A program made the position numbers and the translations under genes. Below the pieces are notes generated by a model. It was given only the letters and a program-made list of their open reading frames with translations, searched no databases and had not been told where the DNA came from. A stretch of DNA of 64,000 bases from Minisyncoccota bacterium (lineage in GTDB: Bacteria; Patescibacteriota; Minisyncoccia; Phycocordibacterales; XYD1-FULL-46-19): NCBI GenBank assembly GCA_041665625.1, contig JBAYIK010000004.1, positions 26,503 to 90,502 of the forward strand, written 5' to 3'. Positions 3,077 to 63,436 of this stretch are shown here, piece by piece (the stretch's first letter is position 1; the number at the start of each line of letters is the position of its first letter).

Positions 3077-4900
3077 TTAGGCTTGTTCCCCCTGCTTTGC
3101 TGCCTGGAATTCGGCCTTAGCCTTCTTGATGGCTAAAATTTGCGATGGGTCAGAAGTGATAATTTGTTCCTCAGTATAAGAAGCTTCAATCCTAATCTCG
3201 ACACGCTTAAGGCCGGCAATAAAGATGCCATTACCAATTGGTGATTCTAGTAAGAAATACTTTTCTTCGTCGGTCAGGTTGAAGATTTGCTGAACTTGGT
3301 CAATAGAGGCTGGAGATTGTTTAAGTAGGATCTGAATTGAGGAGTTGGTGATGATAGGCATGCCGTATTGGGACTTAATGAAGTCGCCAACGTCTTGGGT
3401 GATGGTTGCAACGCCGAGATAATACTTACGACCTCTTTTAACAAGAGCATAGAGGAAGGAGGCGGTATCATCAGCCTTCATCATCCACCAGGCCTCATCG
3501 ACGACGAGGAGTCTCTTTTTAAGATTACGACGAACCGCATTCCAGATGTGGTGCATGACAATATACATAGCTACAGGTTTGAGTTCATCTTCCATGTCGC
3601 GGATAGAGAAAACAACGAATTTCTTGTTGATATCAACGTTGGTGGGTTTATTGAGAAATCCGGCCCAGGTGCCTTGGGTATATTTGAGCAATCTCTGAGC
3701 CAGGGACTCCCCTCCTTCCATTCCGGCTAAGACTAGTTCGAGGTCAGATAAAAGTGGCGCAGGCTTGTTGGTGAAGTCGGTGTCGGGGGTGATATCTTTA
3801 AGAGCATAAGTCTCAGAGATGGCGTTATCAAGGATAGAATCTTCCTCTGGGCTAAGGCCCCCAAGCATGATACGGAAGAGCCCAACCAGGTTGATGATGT
3901 TAGAACGTAAAACATCTGAAGGAGACTCGTCTTCTCGAGCAAAGGGTAAGTCAAAGGGGTTAATATGGTGCTCAGAGGTTAAAGAAATATTAAAATAACG
4001 TCCGCCGACTGCTTCGGCCAAGAATTCATACTCTCGTTCTGGGTCGATGACAATAACATCAATATCAAACATGAGGCTCCGCAGAATCTCTAGTTTAGTA
4101 GCAAAAGATTTTCCTGATCCGGATTTAGCAAAGATGACTGAGTTGTAGTTCTCTAGAGAAAAACGGTCAAAGATGACCAAGGAAGAGTTGTGCATGTTGC
4201 GGCCATAGAGAATCCCTTTATTTGAGGTGAGGTCAAAGGAGACAAAGGGGAAGATACTAGAGAGCGGAGTAGAGTTAATTCGGGTATTCACTTCTAATAG
4301 ATCGGTGGCAAAAGGAATAACGCTCTTGAAACCCTCAGCTTGTTGGAAAAGTGCCGTCTTAAGGTAAATCAATTTAGCATCTAAGATCGATCGGATATCA
4401 CCCTCGGTTTTCTCAAGTTCCTCCTCGGTATTACCATATAGAGTAACATAGAGGCCAACGCTAAACATTTTTTCTGTTGCTTGCATTAATTGGTCACGTA
4501 GATTCTCGATGTCGGCTTGAGCAGTATCAAGCATTGGATCACGAACCATCCCCTTCTCTTCCCTTGTTATTATCTGACTCTCAACCTCGGCAATTTTTTT
4601 CTGTAAGGTACGAAGAGTGACCGTTGTGTCTAAAGGGTGAACAAAAATAGAAATATCAAAGACGCTATCAAGGTTAATAATCGGAGAAAACCATTCCTCA
4701 CTTAAGAATCGGGGGTAAGAAATAACAAAGAGTGTTCGGGCTATTTTTTCACCCAGGTCAAGACTCTTCGGTGTTATACGTAGAGCGGATGGTGAAATAA
4801 TATCACGCAACTCAAGGACCCCTACTTGATAAATATCCTGGGGGAGAAGAGGAATCAGGTTCTCTTTCTTCTTGTTGCTGCTAAAAAAGGGTATATCCAT
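3077..4900 (-). CDS. virB4: VirB4/TrbE/CagE-family type IV secretion ATPase.
   Basis: Walker A motif FAKSGSGKSF and Walker B motif LLVVDEAWWM. Size and context match the VirB4 family. Confidence 0.85.
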   Translation of the reverse strand: MDIPFFSSNKKKENLIPLLPQDIYQVGVLELRDIISPSALRITPKSLDLGEKIARTLFVISYPRFLSEEWFSPIINLDSVFDISIFVHPLDTTVTLRTLQKKIAEVESQIITREEKGMVRDPMLDTAQADIENLRDQLMQATEKMFSVGLYVTLYGNTEEELEKTEGDIRSILDAKLIYLKTALFQQAEGFKSVIPFATDLLEVNTRINSTPLSSIFPFVSFDLTSNKGILYGRNMHNSSLVIFDRFSLENYNSVIFAKSGSGKSFATKLEILRSLMFDIDVIVIDPEREYEFLAEAVGGRYFNISLTSEHHINPFDLPFAREDESPSDVLRSNIINLVGLFRIMLGGLSPEEDSILDNAISETYALKDITPDTDFTNKPAPLLSDLELVLAGMEGGESLAQRLLKYTQGTWAGFLNKPTNVDINKKFVVFSIRDMEDELKPVAMYIVMHHIWNAVRRNLKKRLLVVDEAWWMMKADDTASFLYALVKRGRKYYLGVATITQDVGDFIKSQYGMPIITNSSIQILLKQSPASIDQVQQIFNLTDEEKYFLLESPIGNGIFIAGLKRVEIRIEASYTEEQIITSDPSQILAIKKAKAEFQAAKQGEQA

Positions 4901-6501: not shown

Positions 6502-9102
6502 TTAGAAGCCAGAGCCATTACCCTCGAAGTAGGCTTTTAGTCTTTGTAATTCCTTAGGTAGCGTCCCTGTTGAGCTACTGATGGCTCTCTCGATTTTCTC
6601 TCTTATTGCATCCTTCTCTGACTGCTGGAAGGAGGCAGAACCACGTATTGCTTGTAATTGTTCTGTTGTTAGTTTGGTTGCAATATTTTGATAGGCCAAG
6701 CTGCCTGGGTCAAGGTCCGTGATGTGCTCAGGGCGTATATTTCTTATGTCACTATCACTAATACTTGCCCCTTGGCCATCCTTGAACATTTGTTGGACCT
6801 TGGCCAAAGCGGCTTCAGACTGAGCAGTTCTTGTTTGTTTAGACTCCTCTCTCTTTGTTTCCTCTTTGTCTCTTCCAACTAAGGCCTCTTTTATTGTCTT
6901 CACCCTAAGCTTAAGGGTTGCATCGCCGGCAATATCTTTTTCTAGCTCTATCCTCTCGGCTGGGGTGAGTTTTTTGTACACAGCACTTAGGTCCCCATCA
7001 GAGAGAGAGGAGAGAGCGAGAGCTTTGTCTCCTCCCTTGCTACTCTTTACCATCTCAGCGGCGATATCTTGAGCCTTCTTTCCTGATAGCTTTCCTCTGT
7101 TCTGGGCCATACGATCAGCAACCATTTGAGCCCCCTTCTTAGCGCCGGCAGTAGCATTTGGATCAGCCAAGATTTTACGGGCAGCCAGTTCAACCTTCAC
7201 ACTCTCATTACCCATGTTGTTGTAAATATAATCGAACTCCTCCTTACCTCTGAAGCCGGCAAGACCTTCGACGAAGCGGGATTTTTGCTCGTCGGTCTCA
7301 AGGTTCTTGACATCACTTAAGATACTCTTAGCTCTTTCGTCAACACTAAATGGCTGGACCCCAAGGGCCGAAGTGAGAGGGTTCCTGATGGCCTGGCCGG
7401 CACGTTTGCCATATTCACTCTCTCGAGCCGTTCTTAAGACTCCAGTATCCCAGCTACGGCGAACAAGGCGAAGCCCACCTTCATTCCAACTCTTAGCGGC
7501 AGCTTTTCCAACAGATGAACCAGCAATTCCTGCTCCCACTCGGTTGGCCAGACGTCCCCCGTAACGACTAAGAGGGCGGCTGAGCATCTGCCTTGCTTTA
7601 GAGGCAAAACCGGGAGTGGCTTCGGCCCCGACTTCACTGACCTTTTGGGCGATGAAGATACAAGAAACAATTAGGCCAAGAATAATAATATTGACGACAA
7701 CGAGTGTCCCTGACCCTCCTCCCGCAATTGCCCAACCAGATGTCCCAGAGGTTCCCCCGACATCGGATATCCCCCCTTTTCCTAAGAGCATAAAGACAAG
7801 GTAAAGTGGGATGAGAAAGGCGGGGGCGAAGAATGACTGTTTAACAAGCTCGTTCATCCAGGACTTGAAATAATTAAATTTAGTCCCAGGGATTATTTGA
7901 GACATAAAGGCAAATGGAGAAACTATATATATGAATAATAAAACAACTGTTCTTATTATGAATAGAAAAGCAGCAATAAGAAGAACTATCGCTGTCGCCA
8001 GGAAGATAAAAATATTGCCAAAAGTTTGTCCAATAATACTCAAGAAACTAAGGCGATTTATTTTGGGCTCAATAATGACAGAAGAATCAATATTTCCGTC
8101 GCCAGTAGCGTTGGTTACATAAAGCTTGTCGAGCATTAATTTTTTCACGAGCTCTGTCCCAATAGTTTTGAACTCCATACCTGCACCACCCATCGATTGA
8201 TAGAATTCATAGGCGATAATATTTGATGTGTCGACAACAACCCTAACGAAGAAACCACTAAAATTGACCAGAAGGGCAACAATGACCACATTTGTGATCA
8301 TCTTTTTAGGATCACTAATACCCTTAAGGTCAAAAATTGTTCCGATGGCTATATAAAGAAGGATAAAGACAAAAAAGAGGTTAGAAAAATCACGGACGAG
8401 TTTCCAGGCAGAACTTACGGCATCTGCTTGGAACCAGGTTGTGACCATGGTTATAGACATGTAGACAGAGACATCAAAAATTTTACTGGCTAACCATAAA
8501 ACTAAAACAAAGAGCCAGGAGACAAGATTCCCTGTCCAACCCACCGTTCTCATTAGGCAGTTACCTATATTAATTCCGCCACTAACAGTAAAACAAGAAG
8601 CGTTGTCTATGGCTCCCTCTAGTTTTGTCTCGTTTAACATTTTAACGAGGTTGGCTTTACGATCTTTAACAATCTGGTCATATCTTGCTTGAGCAGCCTT
8701 CTTCTCGGCTGGGGTCTTGGCGTTTTGCAGCATAACACTCTGCAATTGTTGTTCCCCACTGTTTATAATTTCTTTAGCCCTTTTAATGGCCGAGTTGTTT
8801 TTTGTAATGCTGTTCTCCGCTTCTTTTATGCTGTTTCTTATTGAATCGTCTATTATCCACCAATGATTCTGTTTCTGAAGATCTTCAATCGTCTTTCTTT
8901 GTCCAACGTTAGCTGCCTCCATGTTATCAATAATTTGTTGCTGTCTTGGTATCTCGGTATTCAGATAAGTAATCCACTGCTCCTCAGTAACAGCCGCCCT
9001 CATTGTTGTTGGTAGAGCCCCAAATAAGACAAATATAAAGGCTAAAGCAGTAAAAATTGCTTTTCTAAAAAATACTTTATTATCTACTAAGGAAGAAAAC
9101 AT
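6502..9102 (-). CDS. Large polytopic membrane protein, VirB6/TrbL-like, with a long hydrophilic C-terminal tail.
   Basis: Signal/transmembrane N-terminus, a coiled-coil region, then many transmembrane helices with Gly-rich loops. This is the typical position of a VirB6 analogue in conjugation modules. Confidence 0.5.
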   Translation of the reverse strand: MFSSLVDNKVFFRKAIFTALAFIFVLFGALPTTMRAAVTEEQWITYLNTEIPRQQQIIDNMEAANVGQRKTIEDLQKQNHWWIIDDSIRNSIKEAENSITKNNSAIKRAKEIINSGEQQLQSVMLQNAKTPAEKKAAQARYDQIVKDRKANLVKMLNETKLEGAIDNASCFTVSGGINIGNCLMRTVGWTGNLVSWLFVLVLWLASKIFDVSVYMSITMVTTWFQADAVSSAWKLVRDFSNLFFVFILLYIAIGTIFDLKGISDPKKMITNVVIVALLVNFSGFFVRVVVDTSNIIAYEFYQSMGGAGMEFKTIGTELVKKLMLDKLYVTNATGDGNIDSSVIIEPKINRLSFLSIIGQTFGNIFIFLATAIVLLIAAFLFIIRTVVLLFIYIVSPFAFMSQIIPGTKFNYFKSWMNELVKQSFFAPAFLIPLYLVFMLLGKGGISDVGGTSGTSGWAIAGGGSGTLVVVNIIILGLIVSCIFIAQKVSEVGAEATPGFASKARQMLSRPLSRYGGRLANRVGAGIAGSSVGKAAAKSWNEGGLRLVRRSWDTGVLRTARESEYGKRAGQAIRNPLTSALGVQPFSVDERAKSILSDVKNLETDEQKSRFVEGLAGFRGKEEFDYIYNNMGNESVKVELAARKILADPNATAGAKKGAQMVADRMAQNRGKLSGKKAQDIAAEMVKSSKGGDKALALSSLSDGDLSAVYKKLTPAERIELEKDIAGDATLKLRVKTIKEALVGRDKEETKREESKQTRTAQSEAALAKVQQMFKDGQGASISDSDIRNIRPEHITDLDPGSLAYQNIATKLTTEQLQAIRGSASFQQSEKDAIREKIERAISSSTGTLPKELQRLKAYFEGNGSGF

Positions 9103-9107
9103 TTTAA

Positions 9108-11732
9108 TTATCTTGATACTTTCAAATCTCTAGTACTCCCACCTTTATTATTATTACATTTTATTTTGTATTCTACTGATTGACCTGACGTGATGGTTAT
9201 ATCAATACTCCCCGATCTCTCAAGACTGGCGCCAACTTCCTTAAGGACAGTTGTTCCGTCGCCGGCAACCCATTTATTATTACTGAGACAATTGTCAGCA
9301 TTTGGTGAATACCAGTAAACGCGGGAGACACCCTCACCCATATCTTTTGCCTTGAAGACGACCCAAGGCTTAAGGCTATCTAAGAGGTCACCAAGAGCTC
9401 CTAGAATTAATTGAATGGCCCCATTGCTTTCTGGGTCAGCTCCTCCGTCTTCGCTAAAGAGTCCTTCAACTAATCCTGTCAGGTCTCCCCAACCGGCACC
9501 TCCTTGGCCATAGTCACCTTCGTCTCCTCCATCGCCACCGGAGCTTCCTCCTCCAGGGTTTGTATTTGGGTCACTCCTAGTGTTGGCCCCCTCATCGGCA
9601 ATATTCTCTAGCGGGGTTATCCCTGGGCCAATTGCTCCCCCTCCGCGGGTCGACGGTTTATTAGTGAGGACCTCGGCAATGTCGGGCCCGTTCTCTGGAG
9701 CAACGTCTGGTTTTGATGTGGCGCCTTTATACTGGTCAAGTCGAGAATTAACGGTTGCCCCATGAACTTCTTTTATGATGCTTCCTGGCTGGATAATTTT
9801 CCACTCAGCGCACTCTTTCCCATCAGCTGATTTTACTACGCAAGTTCTGGTTCCGAGAAACCCCTGCCCTTGAAGAGCCTCATCTCTAGCCGATTGAACG
9901 GCTGTATTTTTGCTGATCTCTACTTGGTCAGCAGCAATAAGGTAACTCCCAAAACGGTTGTTCTTGGGCTCAGCGAGCTTCTTGAAGCTGTTCCAAAATT
10001 CATCGGACTTTGCGAGGTCAGATTTGGCAGGTTCTTCTCCGACAGCAAAAACGTTTCTGCCTGTGAGAAATGCCAGAGGTTTGTTGATGTAACTTAATAA
10101 AGTAGAAATAATAGGAATACGGTTATTTGCTAATAACCCGCGGCCCTCCTTCGTAACTGAATCGGTAGAAGCGACAACCGTACTTGATATTGCCGCCGAA
10201 TCTTCTGGGGTCAGATCGGAGTTTATGGATAGGCTATTGTCATTTTTAAGGTTTTCCATTACAACACTCATGTTTGGGTTGGAGCTACTAGCCAGAGTGG
10301 CGTAGACAACCTTCTCGGCTTCTCGGCTTTGTTCCCCCCAGAAGGCCCGGTTATTTTGCACAAAGAGAGGGCTGTCTGTCACCTCTTTCCCTTCTCCGTC
10401 GATCCTTGACCCTCCTTTTTTTATTGCTCCATTTTCTCCATATTCTGCTTCGGCGTACTTCGCAATTTCTGCAGACTTGGTTCGAGAAACAATGGCATCT
10501 TCCACCATCTTTTTTTCAAATCCTTGCTGAATACGTTTGATCGCGCGGAGGTGGGTACAAATTTGAATAGACAAATTCTTAGTTTGCTCTGTGTAGGTCT
10601 CAATCTTCTTAGTCTGCTTTTTAATGGCTTCAGTTTTGTCCATTAGATCGCCTGCTTGCTCTTGTACCGGGACATAAGTCTGGGCAAAGGCGTTGTTGGC
10701 CTTGAATAGCATGGCAAAAATACTAAAAGGTTTTTGCCAATTGAAGGCAACTGGCCCACAAAGCGCTTGGGCGTCGGGATCAGAAGCAATCTTCCCGTCA
10801 ATAATTGAGCCATCGCTATTTCGCATTACGTCAGCATTGTTCTCTGCTCTGCCTCTAACTTGGGTAGCGTACTCACTATTCATTATTTCATCACCGGCGG
10901 CATCCCAACTGGCTTGATCTCCTGTGCGTTGGGCCTCTCGCATATTGCTATACATATCATCAAACCCATCGACACCTTGTCCTCCGGAAGCTCCCATATT
11001 GAAGCTCATGTCAGTGAGAGTCGTTTGTCTCTCGGGGGTTAGATCATCCCAATTTACCCCATGTCTCTCGGCTGAAGCTTGGGCATTGGTGCGGGCGGTG
11101 GCGTAATCGGCATCAAATAATTGATTGGCTTGTTCTCTTGTCACACCATCAGCGACAGGGAAAGGCTCGTTGCCTGTAATTTGGTGGCCATAGCCCACTG
11201 TTTGGTGCCCTCTGTCGTTGTAAGGATCAGCGGAGAATCCTTCGTTCGCGACAGTGTAGGCTGGGCCATTACCATTTTCACCAGAACAGGCCGGAGGAGG
11301 AGGGTCAGGGATACCGTCTCCATCAGAATCTACTGGAGGTTTATCAGGGTCATAGGCGTCATCTTGCCTAGGTTTTGACCCCCCAGCACCAGTGCCTCCC
11401 ACTTCAGTATTCACAGATTCTTCACCTTTTTTGCAGACCTTGATATCTTCTTCCTCTTGGGCCTTCTTTAATCTCTCGGCTTCAAGCTTCGTCTGAGCAT
11501 CATCCTTCTTTTGTCTCTCAGCGACGGGATCGGTTTGTTCGCCGTCAGTTGGAGCGCCTGTCCCGTCAAGAGGAAAAGCCTCAGGGAAGGCATCTTCCAC
11601 TGGGTTCGTGTCTAGCGGGAGATCTAGAAGTTGAGCCGAAGCACCTCCAGGGAGAAAGGAAAATGGCAAAATCAGCAAAAAAGCGAGCGAGAGTATGCTT
11701 AAAAGTTTTTTTGCTGTGAGTTGGTCTTTCAT
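9108..11732 (-). CDS. Large secreted protein carrying a GH24 (T4-lysozyme-like) peptidoglycan hydrolase domain. It is the VirB1-like cell-wall hydrolase of the T4SS module.
   Basis: Signal peptide. The motif EGFSADPYNDRGHQTVGYGHQITG...TREQANQLFDADY matches the lysozyme catalytic region E..D..TIGYGH. Gly-rich C-terminal region. Confidence 0.7.
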   Translation of the reverse strand: MKDQLTAKKLLSILSLAFLLILPFSFLPGGASAQLLDLPLDTNPVEDAFPEAFPLDGTGAPTDGEQTDPVAERQKKDDAQTKLEAERLKKAQEEEDIKVCKKGEESVNTEVGGTGAGGSKPRQDDAYDPDKPPVDSDGDGIPDPPPPACSGENGNGPAYTVANEGFSADPYNDRGHQTVGYGHQITGNEPFPVADGVTREQANQLFDADYATARTNAQASAERHGVNWDDLTPERQTTLTDMSFNMGASGGQGVDGFDDMYSNMREAQRTGDQASWDAAGDEIMNSEYATQVRGRAENNADVMRNSDGSIIDGKIASDPDAQALCGPVAFNWQKPFSIFAMLFKANNAFAQTYVPVQEQAGDLMDKTEAIKKQTKKIETYTEQTKNLSIQICTHLRAIKRIQQGFEKKMVEDAIVSRTKSAEIAKYAEAEYGENGAIKKGGSRIDGEGKEVTDSPLFVQNNRAFWGEQSREAEKVVYATLASSSNPNMSVVMENLKNDNSLSINSDLTPEDSAAISSTVVASTDSVTKEGRGLLANNRIPIISTLLSYINKPLAFLTGRNVFAVGEEPAKSDLAKSDEFWNSFKKLAEPKNNRFGSYLIAADQVEISKNTAVQSARDEALQGQGFLGTRTCVVKSADGKECAEWKIIQPGSIIKEVHGATVNSRLDQYKGATSKPDVAPENGPDIAEVLTNKPSTRGGGAIGPGITPLENIADEGANTRSDPNTNPGGGSSGGDGGDEGDYGQGGAGWGDLTGLVEGLFSEDGGADPESNGAIQLILGALGDLLDSLKPWVVFKAKDMGEGVSRVYWYSPNADNCLSNNKWVAGDGTTVLKEVGASLERSGSIDITITSGQSVEYKIKCNNNKGGSTRDLKVSR

Positions 11733-12521: not shown

Positions 12522-13310
12522 ATGTTTAAAAAATACTCTAAATTAAATTTTTCTCTTGCTGTTTTGGTCATAATTTTAGGATCACTTCCCTTGTCTGTCC
12601 GTGCTGCTGGAACAACTAAAGTCTTGAATATTGGATCTCAGGGGGCAGTGGTCCAAACTCTTCAAGTCGTCTTAAATCTTGATCCAGCAACCAAGGTAAG
12701 TTTGGTTGGGGCGGGGGCTCCTGGCCAAGAGACAAGCTATTTTGGGGAAAAAACCCGTTCGGCTGTTATTAAATTCCAGAAGAAATACCATATTACTGGG
12801 GAAAATGGCCAAATTGGCCCCAAAACTCTTCAGCTAATCAATTATTTGGGCCCCAAAATGGTTCTGGCCAAAAAGAAGAAGATTGAGCTTGTCCCCACTG
12901 ATTGGCCAGAGCCTGGTATTACCGATACGGCTATTCCTGCCACAAAAAGTCACACTTCCCAGCCATCCACGGCTAAAAAGGCTGTTGCCGTAAAGAAAAT
13001 TGCTCCTAAATTATTGTCTCTCTCGCCTCAAACTGTGATTAGCGGTAGCAATGTGACCCTTCGAGGTGAAGGTTTTACTAAGACAGGCAACACTGTTGTG
13101 ACCAAGTTCGAGTCGGTAGCGAATGTCCCCTCAACTGACGGCCAGACTTTAAGTTTCCGTTTTTCTATCCCTCTGAGTGATAAAGTTTTGAATATTATAA
13201 ACTCCCTCCCCCAGGCGGCAGTGCCCTCTCTCTCTGTTCCTATATCTGTTTATGTCACAAATGCTAATGGAAAGAGTGGAGAACTTACTTTTAACTATCA
13301 AATAAGATAA
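12522..13310 (+). CDS. Secreted protein with a peptidoglycan-binding (PG_binding_1-like) domain.
   Basis: Signal peptide. The motif [27 protein letters not shown] matches the PG-binding domain. The same domain type recurs at the C-terminus of the ORF at 59495-62827. Confidence 0.55.
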
Positions 13311-17781: not shown

Positions 17782-18201
17782 ATGAATAATCTTGAACTAG
17801 AAATTGCTCAATTGCAGCAGAAGATCGAAGAGAAAAAGAACCAACTCGAACAGCAGGGTGGCATTGTCGAAGAGAAGGAACTCGTGGGAAGTGCTTTGCG
17901 TGAGATTTTTACTGGTGCTAGCGCTCCAAGTGGGGCTAGTTTGCCAGCTACTTCGGCGGCCGTTACTGCTAAAGCGAGCACTGTAACCGACGATAAGAGC
18001 ATTAGTTACCTTGATAATATTGATGACCAGACAGCTGAGACTATCAGTCTTATTATCCAGAAGCTCCCCGAGACCGGCATTGCTAAAGCGGTCTCTGAAG
18101 CTGAATTGGCTGGGCCATTTCTCGTTGATGTCCTCCATGATGCTCTCGTTGATCGTATGTATGACGAATTAGTTCAAAGAGGTTTTATTAAAACAAAATA
18201 A
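17782..18201 (+). CDS. Hypothetical protein with an N-terminal coiled coil, translationally coupled to the downstream ATPase.
   Basis: Its stop overlaps the ATG at 18201. Confidence 0.4.
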   Translation: MNNLELEIAQLQQKIEEKKNQLEQQGGIVEEKELVGSALREIFTGASAPSGASLPATSAAVTAKASTVTDDKSISYLDNIDDQTAETISLIIQKLPETGIAKAVSEAELAGPFLVDVLHDALVDRMYDELVQRGFIKTK

Positions 18202-20546
18202 TGTCTAATTACATTCTTTATCTTTTGGTTTTTCTAGCCGCGCTTATTGTCTTGGGTCTTGTCTGGCGCCAAACGAGAAAACGACACTGGAAGAGCCTTA
18301 ATTTAAGAATATTGCAGATCCGCATTCCACGTACTGGCAACGAAGACAAGGGCGACCCGCTCAAGGAAATTAATCTCTCTGAGCAACTCTTCTCCTCCCT
18401 CTCCTCTATGAATGAGCCATTTGTTTTCGAGGTGGCGGTTAAGAATGTCGGAGAAGAAATTGGTTTCTACTTGGCGGTGCCTCGGAATCAGCTTGATTTT
18501 GCTAAGAGGGTCATCCAGGGTCTCTTCTTGGACGCTCGGGTGGAGGAGACAACAGATTACACTATTTTCCAACCTCATGGGATGGCGGTGGCCGGTTATC
18601 TTGCGATGGACAAGAGCTATTTGATGCCGATTAATACTTATGCCGAGGTTCAGGCTGATGTCTTTGGCCCGATTGTAAGTACCCTGTCTCGAGTGCGAGA
18701 CACTGACGAGGGCGTGGCCCTTCAGATTGTCGTTAAGCCCGCTGACAGTGGAATTAAAAAGAAAATTTCTTCTGGCCTAGAGCAGCTTAAAAAAGGTGTT
18801 AAGTTTTCTAAGCTTGGTTCGGGTGAAAGTTTTAGTCCAAAAGAGATTTATAAAATTCTTTCGGATAATCCTGGCAAAGATGAAAAGAAGGACGTCCAGA
18901 TGGATGAAGAGATGATTAAGGCTGTTGGCTTAAAATTAGCCAAACCTCTTTTCTTGGTTAATGCCCGTGTCGTCACTTCATCTATTGATCAGAACCGAGC
19001 GGAGGACCTCTTCTTATCCATTGCGGGGGCTCTCACTAAGTTCTCCTCCCCTATTCGCAATAGTTTGAAGATGATCAAACCTAAGAAAGTCCGTTCCCTT
19101 ATTTTTAATTACGTCTTCCGCGAGTTTGATGACAAACAGGCAATGATTCTAAATACTGAAGAAATTGCCAGTATCTTCCACTTACCGACGGCCACTTCGG
19201 ATGTCCCCAATGTTAGCTGGCTTAAGTCTAAAGAGGCTCCCCCACCAGATGAGATCCCTACTGAAGGTCTCAAAATTGGCCAGAGCATCTTCCGTGGTTC
19301 CACTAAGGATATTCGTATTACTGATGACGATCGCCGTCGCCACCTCTACATCATTGGCCAGACTGGTACCGGTAAGTCTGTTATGCTTCAGAATCTCGCG
19401 ATGCAGGACATGAGCGCTGGTAAGGGTTTTTGCGTCATTGATCCCCATGGCGACCTGGTGGATAAGATTTTGAAATTTGTGCCCAAAGAAAGGATTGATG
19501 ATGTCATTATCTTTGATCCTGGGGACCGTGAGCGTCCGCTTGGTCTTAATATGCTCGAATATGATTTTACTAAGCCAGAGGAGAAGACTTTCATTATCAA
19601 CGAGTTTCTGGCCATCTTTAATCAGCTCTTTGATAAAGCGTCGCTCGGTCCAATGTTTGAGCGTTATATGCGTGGCGCTTTGAATCTCTTAATGGATGAC
19701 ATGGTCAATGAGCCCGCTACCATTGTTGATATTCCTCGTGTCTTCACTGATGAAGAATTCCGTAAGCGCAAACTTGCTCGTTCCAAGAACCAACAGGTTA
19801 TCGATTTCTGGACTAAGGAAGTTACTAAGACTACTGGTGACCAGAGTTTAGGTAACTTTGCTCCTTATATCGCTTCTAAATTTGATGGCTTTAGTTCTAA
19901 CGATTATATCCGACCTATCATTGGTCAACCTAAATCTTCTTTTGATTTTAGAAAAGCGATGGATGAGGGCAAAATTATTTTGGTTAATCTCTCTAAGGGT
20001 AAGATTGGGGATATTAGCTCATCCCTCTTGGGTATGGTTATCGTCGGTAAGATCTTAAAAGCGGCTTTGTCTCGCGTTGATATTGAAGAAAAAGAGAGAA
20101 AAGACTTTTATCTCTATATCGATGAGTTCCAGAATTACACCACTGACTCAATTGCTGTCATTTTATCTGAGGCACGTAAGTATCGCTTGGACTTGATTGT
20201 GGCCCACCAATTCATTGCTCAGCTCAAAGATAATATCCGTGATGCCGTCTTTGGTAACGTCGGAAACATTGTCTCCTTCCGGGTTGGGGTGGATGACGCT
20301 GAATATTTGGTCAAACACTTCTCACCAGTTTTTAATGAAAAGGATTTGATAGGGGTAGAGAACCTTAATGCTTACGTTAAGATTTTAGTAAAAGGTATTC
20401 CGAGCACTCCCTTTAACATTAACTTTACTTGGGCCTCGGGAGGTTCAGACGAGGTCCGAGAGGGTCTCAAGGAACTCTCGCGTCTACGTTATGGCCAAGA
20501 TTTAGCCAAAGTTGAGGAGGATATTCAGACTCGCCTCCGAAATTAG
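18201..20546 (+). CDS. Membrane-anchored P-loop ATPase, VirD4/TraG coupling-protein-like or HerA/FtsK-like.
   Basis: N-terminal transmembrane helix. Walker A motif IIGQTGTGKSV and Walker B motif LYIDEFQNY. 781 aa. Confidence 0.6.
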   Translation: MSNYILYLLVFLAALIVLGLVWRQTRKRHWKSLNLRILQIRIPRTGNEDKGDPLKEINLSEQLFSSLSSMNEPFVFEVAVKNVGEEIGFYLAVPRNQLDFAKRVIQGLFLDARVEETTDYTIFQPHGMAVAGYLAMDKSYLMPINTYAEVQADVFGPIVSTLSRVRDTDEGVALQIVVKPADSGIKKKISSGLEQLKKGVKFSKLGSGESFSPKEIYKILSDNPGKDEKKDVQMDEEMIKAVGLKLAKPLFLVNARVVTSSIDQNRAEDLFLSIAGALTKFSSPIRNSLKMIKPKKVRSLIFNYVFREFDDKQAMILNTEEIASIFHLPTATSDVPNVSWLKSKEAPPPDEIPTEGLKIGQSIFRGSTKDIRITDDDRRRHLYIIGQTGTGKSVMLQNLAMQDMSAGKGFCVIDPHGDLVDKILKFVPKERIDDVIIFDPGDRERPLGLNMLEYDFTKPEEKTFIINEFLAIFNQLFDKASLGPMFERYMRGALNLLMDDMVNEPATIVDIPRVFTDEEFRKRKLARSKNQQVIDFWTKEVTKTTGDQSLGNFAPYIASKFDGFSSNDYIRPIIGQPKSSFDFRKAMDEGKIILVNLSKGKIGDISSSLLGMVIVGKILKAALSRVDIEEKERKDFYLYIDEFQNYTTDSIAVILSEARKYRLDLIVAHQFIAQLKDNIRDAVFGNVGNIVSFRVGVDDAEYLVKHFSPVFNEKDLIGVENLNAYVKILVKGIPSTPFNINFTWASGGSDEVREGLKELSRLRYGQDLAKVEEDIQTRLRN

Positions 20547-37171: not shown

Positions 37172-37584
37172 GTTTCTCCTTTTTTTTTGCGATATAAAGA
37201 ACAACTCCCCTGTGAAAGTACGACACATGTCGCGCTCTCAATAAGGGAGTCGATTTTTTTAGGATCGACTCAAAAACTTGCGATTGATTGCCCTACCTGA
37301 CGAGCAACCTGGCGTCCCTTGGGTGTCCCGCACTCTCCCGGACCCATGTTCTGGGAAGGAGTCCTTTCGGAGGAAACGTGCAACCATCTCTTTGTTTGTT
37401 ACGGGTTGTTGTGCTGCCGTATCAGAGGAGATTGGCTGTCCAGTCAGAGAGGGTGCTAGCAGCCCTCGTGGACAAGACGGCGGGGTTAAGGAATTAGCCA
37501 TTCACTTTATTATCGACAGCTTTTGTGGCATATCGACGCGGGTGACTTACCGTGACCTCACGTGCTATGGGGATCGCCTACTCC

Positions 37585-38134: not shown

Positions 38135-38640
38135 GACCTATCCCCCCCCTCTTTGTTTGTAAAGATCAAACTCCTCAGGAAACACGAGACTATCTCACAT
38201 TCCCATTAAGAGGGCCGAGTCAGGAGGACTCGGCCGAGATGAGAACCAACCATTATTTTTCTTCTGGGTTGGCCAGACTTTGTCGACAGTGTAGGCTATT
38301 CTCTTTTTACCTACCGTCCCAGGAGAGTCCTTGCCGAAGGGATAATGCATGGCCAACTCGTCGCCCTCTGATTTTTATTTCTCCCGATTATTAAATCAGA
38401 TGGGTTGTGCAGTGAGAGGTATCTCTCGGGCTCGTCAGACCCATTCAGCCCTCCTTGACGGAGAAGGGTTGTCCTTCCTGTTGGGTGCTCCCAACATTTT
38501 GGAAGTTAGAGTTTGGGGACTTACCGACACAGAGCGGATCGTGGCCTTTTGGCGACGATAAAACCGCTGGCGGACTTACTCCCTCCACCGGGTAGACCTC
38601 AGCCTACCCCAGAGTAGGTTGCTCGGGTACCTGCACGCAC

Positions 38641-58637: not shown

Positions 58638-59480
58638 ATGGTTAAAATTACCACTCAAATTGCCCTATTCAAAGGCAAGCAAATCAGAAAGATTATTCAT
58701 AATAACGAGTGGTGGTTTTCGGTTGTGGATATTGTCGAAGCGCTAACAGATAGTTTGAAACCCCGCGTTTATTGGAACGCGATGAAAACAAGGGTTAAGA
58801 GTACTGATGGATTTCAGTTGTCTACAATTTGTCGACAACTGAAATTAGAGTCTTCTGATGGCAAAAAGTATGAGACTGATTGTGCTAACACTGAAGGTGT
58901 CTTCCGTATCATTCAGTCCATTCCATCGCCTAAGGCCGAACCTTTCAAACGTTGGCTGGCGAAAGTCGGTTATGAACGAGTCCAAGAAATCGAAGATCCG
59001 GAGTTGGCCGCCCAAAGGGCTCGGACGATTTATCGAGCCAAGGGTTATCCAGAAGCGTGGATCGAAAAAAGAATGAGGGGTATTGAAGTTAGGGAAACTT
59101 TGACCACCGAATGGAAAAATAGAGGCGCCAAAGAAAAAATTGAATTTGCGATACTAACTAATGAAATTTTGAAAGAAACTTTTGACCTGACGGCGGATGG
59201 TTATAAAAAAGTCAAAGGCCTTAAGCGAGAAAATCTTCGCGATCATATGGATGACATTGAATTAATTTTAACGATGCTAGGGGAAGCTACCACTACTCGT
59301 CTCCATCAAGACCGAGACTCAAAAGGACTTCCTTTATTAAAAAGAGATGCCAAAGACGGCGGCAAAGTAGCTGGCCGAACGAGAAAGGATATTGAGCAAA
59401 AATCCGGTAAGTCAGTAATTTCCAAAAATAATTTTAAAAAGTTAAGCCCTACTTCTCACAAATCTAAAAAATTGCTATAA
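58638..59480 (+). CDS. Bro-N domain protein, antirepressor-like or DinD-like.
   Basis: N-terminus ALFKGKQIRKIIHNNEWWFSVVDIVEALT resembles Bro-N. The C-terminal half is basic. Confidence 0.55.
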   Translation: MVKITTQIALFKGKQIRKIIHNNEWWFSVVDIVEALTDSLKPRVYWNAMKTRVKSTDGFQLSTICRQLKLESSDGKKYETDCANTEGVFRIIQSIPSPKAEPFKRWLAKVGYERVQEIEDPELAAQRARTIYRAKGYPEAWIEKRMRGIEVRETLTTEWKNRGAKEKIEFAILTNEILKETFDLTADGYKKVKGLKRENLRDHMDDIELILTMLGEATTTRLHQDRDSKGLPLLKRDAKDGGKVAGRTRKDIEQKSGKSVISKNNFKKLSPTSHKSKKLL

Positions 59481-59494
59481 TCTGAGGTAATTAT

Positions 59495-62400
59495 ATGAAA
59501 TATGAAAAATCCACTTTTTACTCCCGCCAGAGGCGGGCAAGCTCTCTCTCTCTCTCTCTCGTAATCGCCCTGGGAATTCTTTTTAGTTTCCCGTCCTTGG
59601 CGAGTGCGGCTGTTGATTGCACAAACACTGGCGTTACTGGTGTTCCTCAAATTGAATGTGAAGCATTGATGGCTTTATATAATGGCACAACAGGGTCAGG
59701 TTGGACTACTAAGACAAATTGGGATACCGCCTCTGCTATTAGTACCTGGTCTGGAGTGACCGTTTCAAGTGGTCACGTAACTGTTATAAATATTAGTAAT
59801 TATCATCTCGTTGGTTCACTTCCTGCTGAACTTGGCAATTTGACTTCTCTTATTTCTCTAACAATAAAAAGTAATTCCACTGGGCTGACAGGCTCTATCC
59901 CATCTTCTATAGGTAATCTTACTAATTTATTAGCCACAAATTTATCAGCAAACGCACTTTCTGGTAGTATTCCAACCACGATTGGTAATTTAACTAAACT
60001 CACATCTTTAAATTTATTTGGCAATCAGTTAACCGGAGCAATTCCCACTGAAATTGGTAATTTAACGAATTTGACAACATTATACTTACGTTCTAATCAA
60101 TTATCCGGAAGCATCCCTACAGAATTGACTAATTTAACAAAACTTACTTCTCTTTATCTTGATACTAACCAATTGTCAGGTTCAATCCCATCGGGTCTTT
60201 CTAGTAAATTAGTAACCCTTTGGTTAAATTCTAATCAGTTGTCGGGGGCTTTGCCTCACGATATTGCTAGCATGCCTCTTACTGGTTTCAAAATAGATAC
60301 AAATAATTTTGTGTTTAGTGACTTCGAGTCAGATTTTAGTAGCTATTGCACTAGTTCTCCTTCTTCTTTTGTGTATACGCCCCAGGCTACTGTCGACACA
60401 GTAAGATCTTTAGTTTTTAATAATGGAGATACTCTGACCATTACCTCATCTATAACATCTGGATCCTATGATTTATATCAATGGTATAAGGATGACACAA
60501 TAATTCCTGGAGCAACTTCAAGAGTTTTTACAAAAACAGCGGATGAGAGAACGGACAGTGGTGTTTATTCTTATCGAGTGACAAACAGTGTCGCCACAGC
60601 CTTAACTCTACAGTCAAATAATATAACAGTCAGCATTGCACCTAATCCTCCTGTTTCGGATAACATTTATTATATTGTCGTGAATAATGGTGTTTGGGTT
60701 AGAGGTTCTGTCTCTCCTGATAAGGACATCTCTCAATACTATGATCTTGATGCAACAGATAATCATAATGTTAATTATGGCCCCAATTACATCATAAGTA
60801 GTACCACCCCAAACAATGTCAATAGTTATGATAGCGGTACGCTTATTGGTGGCTATGATGATAGTGTTGCTCCACTCCAAACAGAAAATGTTGGTTATAT
60901 TATGACTAATCATGGATTGATTGTTCCGGTCGTTACTAGCGTTGGACATAATAAAACTAGCGCTGACATTGGCAGTCGTTGGAGTGATGGTTCGCATCAG
61001 TTTATTCTCGTTGAAATTTTAGGCAACGCTTTGACTTTTTATTCCATACCATATGGTTCCCCTTGGGCCATGTCTTATACTGTTGCTGGGGCCCTTACCC
61101 ATGTTTCTGGGGCAACTAATACTGGTAATATTACAGTTACCTCTCAGGTAGCAACTCAAATGTATCCCGTTTTGAAAAATTTAACGCATAATATTCTCGT
61201 TAATGGGGTTTCAGAAGCGACAAGTAGCGACAGCACTTATGCCGGTTATGCTGATTACATTGATATCGTAGAGGAATTTGATTTAATTGATCCATCAACT
61301 CTTGTCACCACAAATAATCCGTTTGTTTGGAACGATGCCACAAGTACTTGGATACACGTCGAAAACACCTTCAAGGTTTCCGCAGGAAAAACCATATTCC
61401 ATGCCGTCTATGAAGTTATGCGACCAATTAATTTTAATTATTTTGGGATAATTCAAACAAAACCACTTTCCTCGACTGAGCATGACAATTTGTACTATTA
61501 TGTGCCAAAAACTAAACCTATCGGAGGATATGATTTTAAAAATACGCAGTTGTTAAATTCGGCTCCAACAACAACTATTGCCTTCACCTCGCCATATATT
61601 GACGACCTTAACAGCCCCCCTGATCGTCAGACGATGTTTTTGAAGAAGAATGCTGAAAGTAATTATGATATTGGTCTTGCTTTTGGCTATAGTCCCTTAT
61701 CGTCATCTACTAGAGATTGTTTGGATTATGGTCAGGGTTGCTGGTGGATTTATACATCAAAGAAAGTATACCCCGTTTATGTTGGGGGCACAGGGGTGAC
61801 TAATAGCGGAACTTATGATGTCTATGCCTATCGTCAATGGATTGATCCTAAAATGTATAATATTAATAAAAGTGCTTATTGGAATAACCAAGACGGGCAT
61901 GACTATGTTTATGTCGATTATCATGAAAGTGTGACGGATGACATAACGGCATTACCTACATCATATGTGGGTAAAGCAATTCGGGTCGTAGAGTCAGAAA
62001 ATATTTCTCTTGCTCAGACAAACGTACCAGTCACGGGATTATCGTTATCTACGACAGGGGTAAATACCTATGGTTATGTGGTCTTGGAGCTTTATGATGA
62101 TAATGTTGCTCCCGCTGTTTCTATCTCCGCTCCCACTGAGAACTCGGTTGTCTCTGGTAACTCTGTCACTCTAACCACTAACGCTTCAGATGATATTGGG
62201 TTAGCTTCTATTCAATTCAAAATTGATGGCGTGAGCTATGGCCCCACTTCAGCCGTTAGCCCCTATTCTCTCACCTGGGACTCCACCACCGTCTCTGATG
62301 GCCCCCATAGCTTGGTGGCTGTCGCTCTTGATACCTCTGGCAACTACGCCACCTCTTCCGCTGTCACTTTCACTGTCCACAATATCCCCACCCCCTCTCA

Positions 62401-62827: not shown

Positions 62828-62840
62828 TTAAACAAAATCA

Positions 62841-62878
62841 AAAAAAAGGGGGGAAAGCTTAGCCACCCCCTTTTTTTT
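62841..62878. terminator. Bidirectional intrinsic terminator.
   Basis: AAAAAAA-GGGGGG-loop-CCCCC-TTTTTTTT. Confidence 0.6.
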
Positions 62879-62905: not shown

Positions 62906-63436
62906 ATGAGAATGAAAAAAGAAAATAATATTGCTTTTGTCGATGGACAAAATTTGCACCTGGGCACAATGCTAAATAATTGGCGGGTCGATTTATGGAA
63001 ATTTAAAGTTTACCTTAAAGATAAGTATCATGTCACTGAGGCTTATTATTTTTTGGGCTATGTTTCTGACGATGAAAAAGATCTATATGATAACTTGCAG
63101 AAATCAGGCTTCACTCTTTGTTTTAAAGAACATCTTTCTCTTTTGAAAGGATCAAAAAAGGGAAATGTTGATACCGACATTGTCTTTGAGATTATGAAAA
63201 ATCTGATGGACAATAAAGATTTTGATAAAATTGTTTTAGTTTCTGGTGATGGAGATTATAAAAAAGTCGTTGATTATTTAATAAAGAAAGATAAGTTTAG
63301 AAAAGTACTCTTTCCTAACAGGAAATTTGCTTCGTCTTTGTATAAAACTCTAGATTTATCCTTTTACGATAACCTAGACAACCCTGACATTAAGGCGAAA
63401 ATTGAATATTTACAGAAAAAGAAAAGGGCTCCTTAG
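62906..63436 (+). CDS. NYN/LabA-like (PIN-fold) domain protein, second paralog.
   Basis: Motifs IAFVDGQNLHLG and VLVSGDGDYKKVV. Confidence 0.65.
   Translation: MRMKKENNIAFVDGQNLHLGTMLNNWRVDLWKFKVYLKDKYHVTEAYYFLGYVSDDEKDLYDNLQKSGFTLCFKEHLSLLKGSKKGNVDTDIVFEIMKNLMDNKDFDKIVLVSGDGDYKKVVDYLIKKDKFRKVLFPNRKFASSLYKTLDLSFYDNLDNPDIKAKIEYLQKKKRAP

Follow-up and report, generated by a model that had tools for sequence, protein, structure and literature searches.

A CT-repeat tract in the signal-peptide codons of a leucine-rich repeat protein as a probable three-state phase-variation switch in Candidate Phyla Radiation bacteria

The 64-kb stretch of contig JBAYIK010000004.1 analyzed here (the window), from an uncultured Minisyncoccota bacterium, encodes a 1110-amino-acid (aa) protein with leucine-rich repeats (LRR), an immunoglobulin (Ig)-like domain and a peptidoglycan-binding domain, and a run of nine CT units lies within the first codons of its open reading frame (ORF). 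We propose that this (CT)9 tract is a site of slipped-strand mispairing and that it probably acts as a translational phase-variation switch for the predicted secreted protein. The switch would have three states, ATG1-ON, ATG2-ON and OFF. A polymorphism of tract length in which both alleles are open, the arithmetic of the reading frames, the conservation of the module in related species and the occurrence of relatives in the OFF register are matters of observation. The original prediction, made from the letters of the window, had placed a (TC)9 repeat at 59542-59560 in the 5' coding region of the 1110-aa protein, encoding SLSLSL in signal-peptide-like codons, and both the sequence and the ORF bear this out.

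Positions 59542-59560 read CTCTCTCTCTCTCTCTCTC, that is (CT)9 at 59542-59559 followed by C, or equally C followed by (TC)9 at 59543-59560. Codons 17-22 of the ORF (tct ctc tct ctc tct ctc) fall within the tract and give SLSLSL at the point where the charged n-region of the signal-peptide-like N-terminus meets its hydrophobic core. The tract is by far the longest dinucleotide repeat of the window, where the runner-up has 5 units and a (CT)5 tract lies at 13226-13235. A first-order Markov model predicts 1.5e-5 dinucleotide runs of 9 or more units, whatever their composition, in 64 kb. A tract of this length is far beyond chance. The N-terminus itself, as delineated by heuristics, is MKYEKSTFYSRQRRASSLSLSLVIALGILFSFPSLASA followed by cleavage before AVDC; it comprises a charged n-region MKYEKSTFYSRQRRAS, a hydrophobic core (LSLSLVIALGILFSF; also delimited as LSLSLVIALGIL) and the site PSLASA/AVDC. 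The residues after the predicted cleavage, A-[VT]-D-C, are kept across homologues. The positions of these elements are collected in Table 1.

Table 1. Features of the candidate switch and its gene in the window
Feature	Position	Strand	Remarks
Candidate promoter: TTCTCA, 17-nt spacer, TG-extended TATAAT	59453-59481	+	10/12 consensus matches; TG before the -10 hexamer
Shine-Dalgarno-like GAGGT	59485-59489	+	5 nt before ATG1, 12 nt before ATG2; read from sequence; invariant in species B
ATG1	59495-59497	+	In frame with the ORF at 6, 9 and 12 units (state of the window)
ATG2	59502-59504	+	7 nt 3' of ATG1, +1 frame; in frame with the ORF at 5, 8 and 11 units
Signal-peptide-like coding region	59495-59608	+	38 codons; predicted cleavage ASA/AV; heuristic only
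21-nt insertion	59523-59543	+	Species A only; between starts and tract; both frames preserved; alignment gap versus species B
(CT)9C dinucleotide tract, proposed slippage site	59542-59560	+	Encodes S17-L22
ORF of 1110 aa	59495-62827	+	LRR / Ig-like / central domain / Big_7 / PG_binding_1

The consequences of a change in unit number follow from two start codons, here called ATG1 and ATG2. The locus of the window's species (species A) was rebuilt in silico with 4-14 units, and the frame model was computed also for three related species, B, C and D. With 6, 9 or 12 units (n = 0 mod 3) the full ORF is read from ATG1, as the 1110-aa precursor at 9 units. With 5, 8 or 11 units (n = 2 mod 3) the full ORF is read from ATG2, as a 1107-aa precursor at 8 units. 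With 7, 10 or 13 units (n = 1 mod 3) both ATGs run into a stop within 31 codons, and the gene is OFF. The original prediction held that a change of one unit would switch the protein off; this is right for the step from 9 to 10 units and wrong for the step from 9 to 8, where the gene stays ON through ATG2. Its core idea of a slipped-strand contingency switch is sustained by the 8/9 polymorphism, the positional conservation, the OFF-register relatives and the 5' enrichment of repeats presented below, and its simple on/off logic is wrong in one direction.

In the mechanism that we propose, replication slippage would add or remove 2-nt units and so shift the downstream ORF among three registers. 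Two of the registers would be productive because the ATGs, 7 nt apart and in different frames, both lie upstream of the tract. At 9 units, initiation at ATG1 (59495) would yield the 1110-aa precursor. At 8 units, initiation at ATG2 (59502) would yield the 1107-aa precursor, with an n-region that is different and less charged (net charge +2 from ATG2 and +4 from ATG1, by heuristics) and with core, cleavage site and mature protein unchanged. As both ON precursors share core and cleavage site, the mature protein would be identical. In the n = 1 mod 3 register no signal-peptide-bearing protein would be made; the first in-frame internal methionine (M58) is not accompanied by signal-peptide features. 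Switching would be frequent and reversible. Expression from ATG2 would be at a different level, probably a lower one, owing to poorer spacing from GAGG and to competition from ATG1. The benefit may be bet-hedging over a surface protein that takes part in cell contact or is targeted by phage.

A natural difference in tract length is present among assemblies of species A. A contig from ENA (L002; ERZ27249449 k141_905378, 90,970 nt) can be aligned to 7,499 nt of the window without a mismatch; the single gap, of 2 nt, falls in the tract. The window has 9 units, the JGI 3300037810 contig (L001) has 9 units together with 3 single-nucleotide polymorphisms, and the ENA contig has 8. The strain comparison of tract length that came with the original prediction thus yields 8 versus 9 units in assemblies that are otherwise identical over these 7,499 nt. 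The best database match of the protein (P0001 from ENA, 1107 aa, 99% identical) begins with MKNPLFTPARGGQALSLSLVIALG where the window's protein begins with MKYEKSTFYSRQRRASSLSLSLVIALG; its N-terminus is the translation from ATG2 (59502), put in frame by the loss of one unit. These three assemblies (9, 9 and 8 units) are the only ones of species A in the collection, as shown by a look-up through the neighboring Bro-N protein, which is unbiased for tract state. The (GA)9 repeat that stands at the equivalent place in species C (see below) is unchanged in ENA assemblies of the ERZ272xxxxx series (2 contigs read, 3 recorded), whose accessions are near that of the 8-unit contig and which possibly share its pipeline. 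Because this repeat is reproduced there, and because a tract of 19 nt is much shorter than the k141 k-mer, the 8/9 difference is probably not a general assembly artefact. Two further kinds of search added nothing. A scan of metagenome contigs for the conserved leader GGTAATTATATGAANTATGAAAAA had no match, the collection evidently being without the samples of the JGI contigs that carry the leader, and short N-terminal protein queries for fragments with other tract lengths gave nothing useful, the word index appearing insensitive to short queries.

The module of two ATGs followed by a repeat is retained in relatives. The homologue in species B (P0002; contigs L003-L006) is 63% identical as a protein, and both ATGs and the (CT)9C are exact. 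Its leader has a promoter-like TTCTCt, 17 nt and TGcTATAAT, then GAGGTAATTAT and ATGAATTATGAAAAA, and then (CT)9C followed by GTAATCG. The coding DNA around the tract is heavily substituted, and the upstream genes are a PemK toxin and a small ORF in species B versus Bro-N in species A. A Logan variant of the species B protein (P0122) equals P0002 plus 47 aa at the C-terminus (...RKVISKLQLRQKKGEL...), so that the stop codon must have been lost or bypassed in that assembly. In species C (P0003, 53% identity, on contigs of 329 kb and 366 kb) the leader reads ATGAACTATGAAC, (GA)9 and GTAAT, the latter as in species A and B. The repeat occupies the same position as in A and B and encodes RERERE, in the n-region, rather than SLSLSL. 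With GA and RERERE here against CT and SLSLSL in species A and B, what has been conserved is the repeat in the DNA rather than the peptide it encodes.

At its 9 units, species C has both ATGs out of frame with the gene, with stops after 17 and 19 codons, and the 1219 codons past the tract are open. According to the frame model, ATG1 would yield a precursor of 1227 aa at 8 units, and ATG2 would yield one at 7 or 10 units. In species D (a Moraniibacteriota metagenome-assembled genome (MAG), L007, and the JGI contig L056) two ATGs in two frames and then (AG)10 precede a 1583-aa homologue that shares the central domain, and in the model the ORF is joined to one or the other of these ATGs when the tract has 9/12 or 8/11 units. 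Species D has another ATG past the tract, in frame in every register, and so the effect there may differ. A further relative, L047, has a run of G7 in its signal-peptide codons and is frameshifted, with 1147 open codons downstream; it would be ON at G6 or G9, and the same state is found in the Logan assembly L101. ON and OFF registers therefore both occur naturally with intact ORFs: two ON alleles in species A, and OFF in species C and in L047/L101, the OFF register not having been observed in species A. Gene callers began the OFF-register homologues P0003 (L045 1501) and P0006 (L047 912) at an internal TTG, for species C with LIFSKPVFA..., and the annotated proteins have no signal peptide. 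Such truncation implies that genes of this kind would be systematically mis-annotated in MAGs, silently and without any flag.

Repeats are concentrated at the start of these genes. We took 13 distinct loci of the family (139.7 kb) and counted as a strong simple sequence repeat (SSR) any dinucleotide run of at least 6 units or G/C run of at least 7. Seven of the 8 strong SSRs lie within -100..+120 of the predicted gene start, an interval that makes up 2.06% of the sequence; a binomial estimate for this outcome is ~1e-11, or ~5e-10 if species A and B are treated as one origin. Two of the family's repeats, G9 in L055 and C8 in L060, are at the 5' end of the gene; they may lie in the 5' untranslated region or the promoter, as downstream GTG/ATG starts are possible, and they are counted merely as 5'-end SSRs. 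The lone strong SSR outside the start region is C8/G8 at 38142-38149 of the window, which is also the only other strong SSR in the window. Read as G8 on the minus strand (AGAGGGGGGGGA), it precedes by 8 nt the ATG (38134) of an ORF of 130 aa on that strand, for which Pfam gives no match, and it could be a Shine-Dalgarno-like element or a second variable tract.

The candidate promoter can be assigned to the LRR gene because the block is kept in species B from the -35 hexamer onward, despite a different gene upstream. Shine-Dalgarno-like motifs precede just 8 of the 39 long ORFs of the window, with spacings mostly of 5-8 nt; if transcription begins ~7 nt past the -10 hexamer, the GAGGT would be at or before the 5' end of the mRNA. 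The start-codon pair ATGAAnTATGAA is conserved in species B and C. Stops interrupt the third frame before the tract (TAA at 59488, TGA at 59503), and no ATG, GTG or TTG occurs in it up to the tract. Starts in two of three frames, both open to the repeat, constitute the layout known from licA (discussed below), and this layout holds in species A, B, C and D. The 21-nt insertion of species A contains a perfect GC-rich hairpin (CCCGCC-AGA-GGCGGG, 59523-59537) directly 5' of the CT tract, a motif unique in the window. The folding energy of the whole leader RNA is not unusual (z = -0.74), and on this ground we no longer consider that the leader RNA forms a regulatory structure or stimulates frameshifting. 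The upstream Bro-N domain gene (58638-59480) stops 15 nt before ATG1, and an NYN-domain gene (62906-63436) follows downstream. In the related species the neighborhood of the homologue differs each time (L003, L045, L047, L048): GyrB/PemK...ThrRS; S1...Lactamase_B/GyrA; RF-1...S2/EF-Ts. The LRR gene is thus not syntenic, yet its candidate promoter and leader travel with it.

The protein under the putative switch is deposited in GenBank as MFA6476396.1, 'MAG: Ig-like domain-containing protein [Candidatus Paceibacterota bacterium]', a name that agrees with the original attribution to an organism of the Candidate Phyla Radiation (CPR) type. LRR, Ig-like and peptidoglycan-binding content had likewise been read correctly from the letters: at E <= 0.01 the Pfam matches are LRR_1, LRR_14, LRR_8, LRR_4, Ig_2/Ig_3 (weak), Big_7 and PG_binding_1. 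The LRR region spans aa ~106-260 and the Ig-like domain ~304-379; a central domain of ~480 aa follows, and then Big_7 (873-941) and PG_binding_1 (1043-1105). The central domain has no Pfam match and no sequence match in the PDB, and an AlphaFold model of the Ig-like and central domains, built on an alignment of 7 sequences, was poor (pLDDT, the model's confidence score, 47). A PDB profile search gave matches confined to the Ig-like part (60404-60631 of the window), whose closest solved relatives are phage tail and decoration proteins (9c2d_S, 9ncf_S, 5lxk_A and 8zvi_a). Among GTDB species representatives, full-length relatives with the central domain are found only in CPR MAGs (Moraniibacteriota, Saccharibacteria and Nomurabacteria). 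The order and names of the domains suggest a wall-anchored binding protein, and domain content together with the heuristic signal peptide suggests that it is secreted or surface-exposed.

Several observations weigh against a switch. The direct evidence for instability is one 8/9 difference in three assemblies of species A. Two of the contigs, the window's source at 90,948 nt and the one from ENA at 90,970 nt, are nearly equal in length and may share a sample; in that case, a disagreement confined to the tract between two assemblies of the same reads would itself point to a mixed population. Tract length is constant elsewhere. Species B has 9 units in the 4 contigs read. Its protein is found unchanged in six contigs, and one more has the same N-terminus; this constancy is biased, because contigs were looked up by exact protein. 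In species C the tract has 9 units in all 5 contigs read (6 recorded), and in species D there are 10 units in both contigs. The same-length contigs of B, C and D are probably in large part one population re-sampled or re-assembled. About half of the surveyed family members are without a strong SSR (L048, L049, L051, L053, L058 and L059): L049, L051, L058 and L059 have no strong repeat, and A8 and T8 runs occur in L053 and L048. The signal peptide is predicted by heuristics only. Lastly, when each leader is shuffled with its dinucleotides preserved, 9-28% of the shuffles contain a further open ATG in a different frame. The statistical support for a dual-start design is therefore only modest, and we rejected the dual ATG as strong stand-alone evidence.

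In one rival explanation the tract is a passive low-complexity stretch in which SLSLSL is simply tolerated, and 8 versus 9 units comes from an error in assembly or sequencing or from a rare single mutation. We consider this unlikely. A single length difference in species A and fixed lengths across the assemblies of all other species are what it predicts, and signal-peptide sequences are loosely constrained. Against it, the repeat at the same position in species C encodes the charged RERERE, which is a non-conservative replacement for SLSLSL; tolerance of the peptide does not account for this. Error is a poor account of a sole difference in 7.5 kb that falls exactly at the tract, when the tract is far below the assembly k-mer (k141 names) and (GA)9 is faithfully reproduced in two ENA contigs of species C. 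The clustering of several kinds of strong SSR at the 5' end of the family also argues against passivity.

A second explanation, which we hold to be slightly less likely again, is that the repeat tunes the amount or the export of the protein. Steps of 3 units would resize the core of the signal peptide, the choice of ATG would alter n-region charge and initiation, and OFF would be a rare by-product. In species A each of the two observed alleles is ON, and they differ in n-region charge (+4 and +2) and in spacing to GAGG (5 and 12 nt). The licA gene likewise is productive in two of three registers, and all of this fits with tuning. It is countered by relatives whose ORFs are otherwise intact and yet stand in the OFF register (species C, and L047/L101 at G7), which mean that OFF is actually occupied by populations, and by the fact that either ON state can pass to OFF through slippage of a single unit, the most common kind.

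The same relatives might instead be decaying pseudogenes, with the repeats as the mere site of inactivation and no reversible switching, which we regard as very improbable. Species C is indeed out of frame in every assembly, and a Nomurabacteria homologue (L010) is frameshifted between signal peptide and mature part at a place that has no SSR. Decay is difficult to reconcile with 1219 (species C) and 1147 (L047) downstream codons free of further stops and frameshifts, with a repeat, both ATGs and signal-peptide codons that are intact and one slippage step from ON, or with a window's species that is ON in both alleles. The L010 locus itself (3470-3540 of Nomurabacteria MAG JAPLXP010000014.1) has its signal-peptide codons MKFKHLVILFVMFGVF and its mature LRR part in different frames with no repeat at the junction; the shift may be a sequencing error or a true frameshift, and there are N runs in L009 of the same MAG. 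We left L010 out as an SSR case, there being no repeat at the frameshift and N runs in the MAG. It is hardly credible that the frame is restored in the RNA, through slippage of the transcribing polymerase or programmed frameshifting by ribosomes, such that all DNA lengths yield some protein. Polymerase slippage can be promoted by repeat tracts, with the best documentation for long A/T runs, and is not known as an established effect of dinucleotide tracts. The leader has no evident structure that would stimulate frameshifting (given the folding result above), and the length difference is seen in the DNA itself.

A translational phase-variation switch at the tract has close parallels in known systems. 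In Helicobacter pylori oipA (and also sabA and babA), the CT repeats lie in the 5' codons for the signal peptide and undergo slipped-strand mispairing, and natural On and Off alleles of 5-11 units are on record (PMC10564699); the gene product is an adhesin (PMC10564699; PMC2715451). The window locus resembles oipA in having a CT tract in 5' signal-peptide codons, where the frame shifts with unit number. It differs from the Hop genes of H. pylori in that a Pfam scan of the LRR protein finds no Hop or outer-membrane-protein domain; the mechanism is alike and the gene is not a member of that family. It differs also in belonging to an environmental CPR bacterium and in having two productive registers, and switching is demonstrated in H. 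pylori and here is proposed from sequence comparison. The second parallel is licA of Haemophilus influenzae, where two of the three frames have initiation codons ahead of the CAAT repeats, and one register is OFF while the other two are ON (PMC2212159). Its measured rate of switching is ~1e-2 to 1e-3 per generation. Both loci have a unit that is not a multiple of three just past starts in two of three frames. Unlike the dinucleotide in a gene for a predicted secreted protein described here, the licA repeat is a tetranucleotide in the gene of a cytoplasmic choline kinase that modifies lipopolysaccharide. As judged from its sequence, the window locus combines the designs of oipA and licA and is homologous to neither protein.

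Three other systems resemble the window locus in part. A hypervariable gene of the CPR bacterium Gracilibacterium has in-frame 9-mer repeats that encode PTD and change the protein sequence (PMC6851277). That is in-frame variation, unlike the frame-shifting on/off tract proposed here. The opa genes of Neisseria carry CTCTT repeats in the signal-peptide codons of a family of surface adhesins, and their expression depends on frame. A pyrimidine-rich repeat in signal-peptide codons is thus common to opa and the window locus; opa has a pentanucleotide, is multi-copy in one genome and has an unrelated fold. The internalins of Listeria have a similar order of signal peptide, LRR, Ig-like domain and C-terminal wall-binding module. 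In contrast to them, the window's protein has the ~480-aa central domain and Big_7, and it would be attached to the wall by PG_binding_1 in place of LPXTG/GW modules. No internalin-specific Pfam family matches it at E <= 0.01, so that the likeness is one of general architecture, and we know of no SSR control of internalins.

Phase variation through SSRs is a hallmark of host-adapted pathogens and is taken as a sign of fluctuating antagonism with host or phage. The mechanism is known from pathogens such as Helicobacter and Haemophilus, and it appears not to have been described before in CPR bacteria. A full-text literature search found no published phase-variable or slipped-strand system in Patescibacteria or the CPR, though such literature may exist outside the library searched; for Patescibacteria and phase variation it returned one unrelated paper, and the papers on Saccharibacteria that it returned appear to concern the host bacterium or other mechanisms. 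For an uncultured lineage the comparative pattern is unusually clear: the unit has turned over at a fixed position, two registers are predicted to be productive, and OFF alleles are found in genes that are intact. We see about an even chance that a broader picture holds, in which CPR lineages (Paceibacteria, a Moraniibacteriota MAG and others) possess a large family of secreted LRR/central-domain proteins with a conserved three-state cassette of two out-of-frame ATGs, a purine/pyrimidine dinucleotide tract and a signal-peptide core. This cassette would have been kept across more than 40% protein divergence while its unit turned over from CT to GA or to G/C homopolymers, and it would be the first CPR contingency locus, by which ultra-small and presumably host-dependent cells hedge stochastically between display and hiding of a major contact protein. 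If CPR bacteria do use such a device on their largest surface proteins, the family would be singled out as a likely determinant of cell contact or phage receptor, and tract length in existing metagenomic reads would be a cheap and testable marker of population bet-hedging.

Other features of the window are noted briefly. Genes resembling those of type IV secretion or conjugation (3077-4900, 6502-11732 and 18201-20546) include a TraG/VirB4-like P-loop ATPase and a TrwB-like coupling protein, and two adjoining ORFs beside them, of 866 and 874 aa, have no Pfam match. Homopolymer runs are present in the short intergenic region between the LRR and NYN genes, as A8 (62840-62847) and T8 (62871-62878), and a T9 run is located at 37180-37188.

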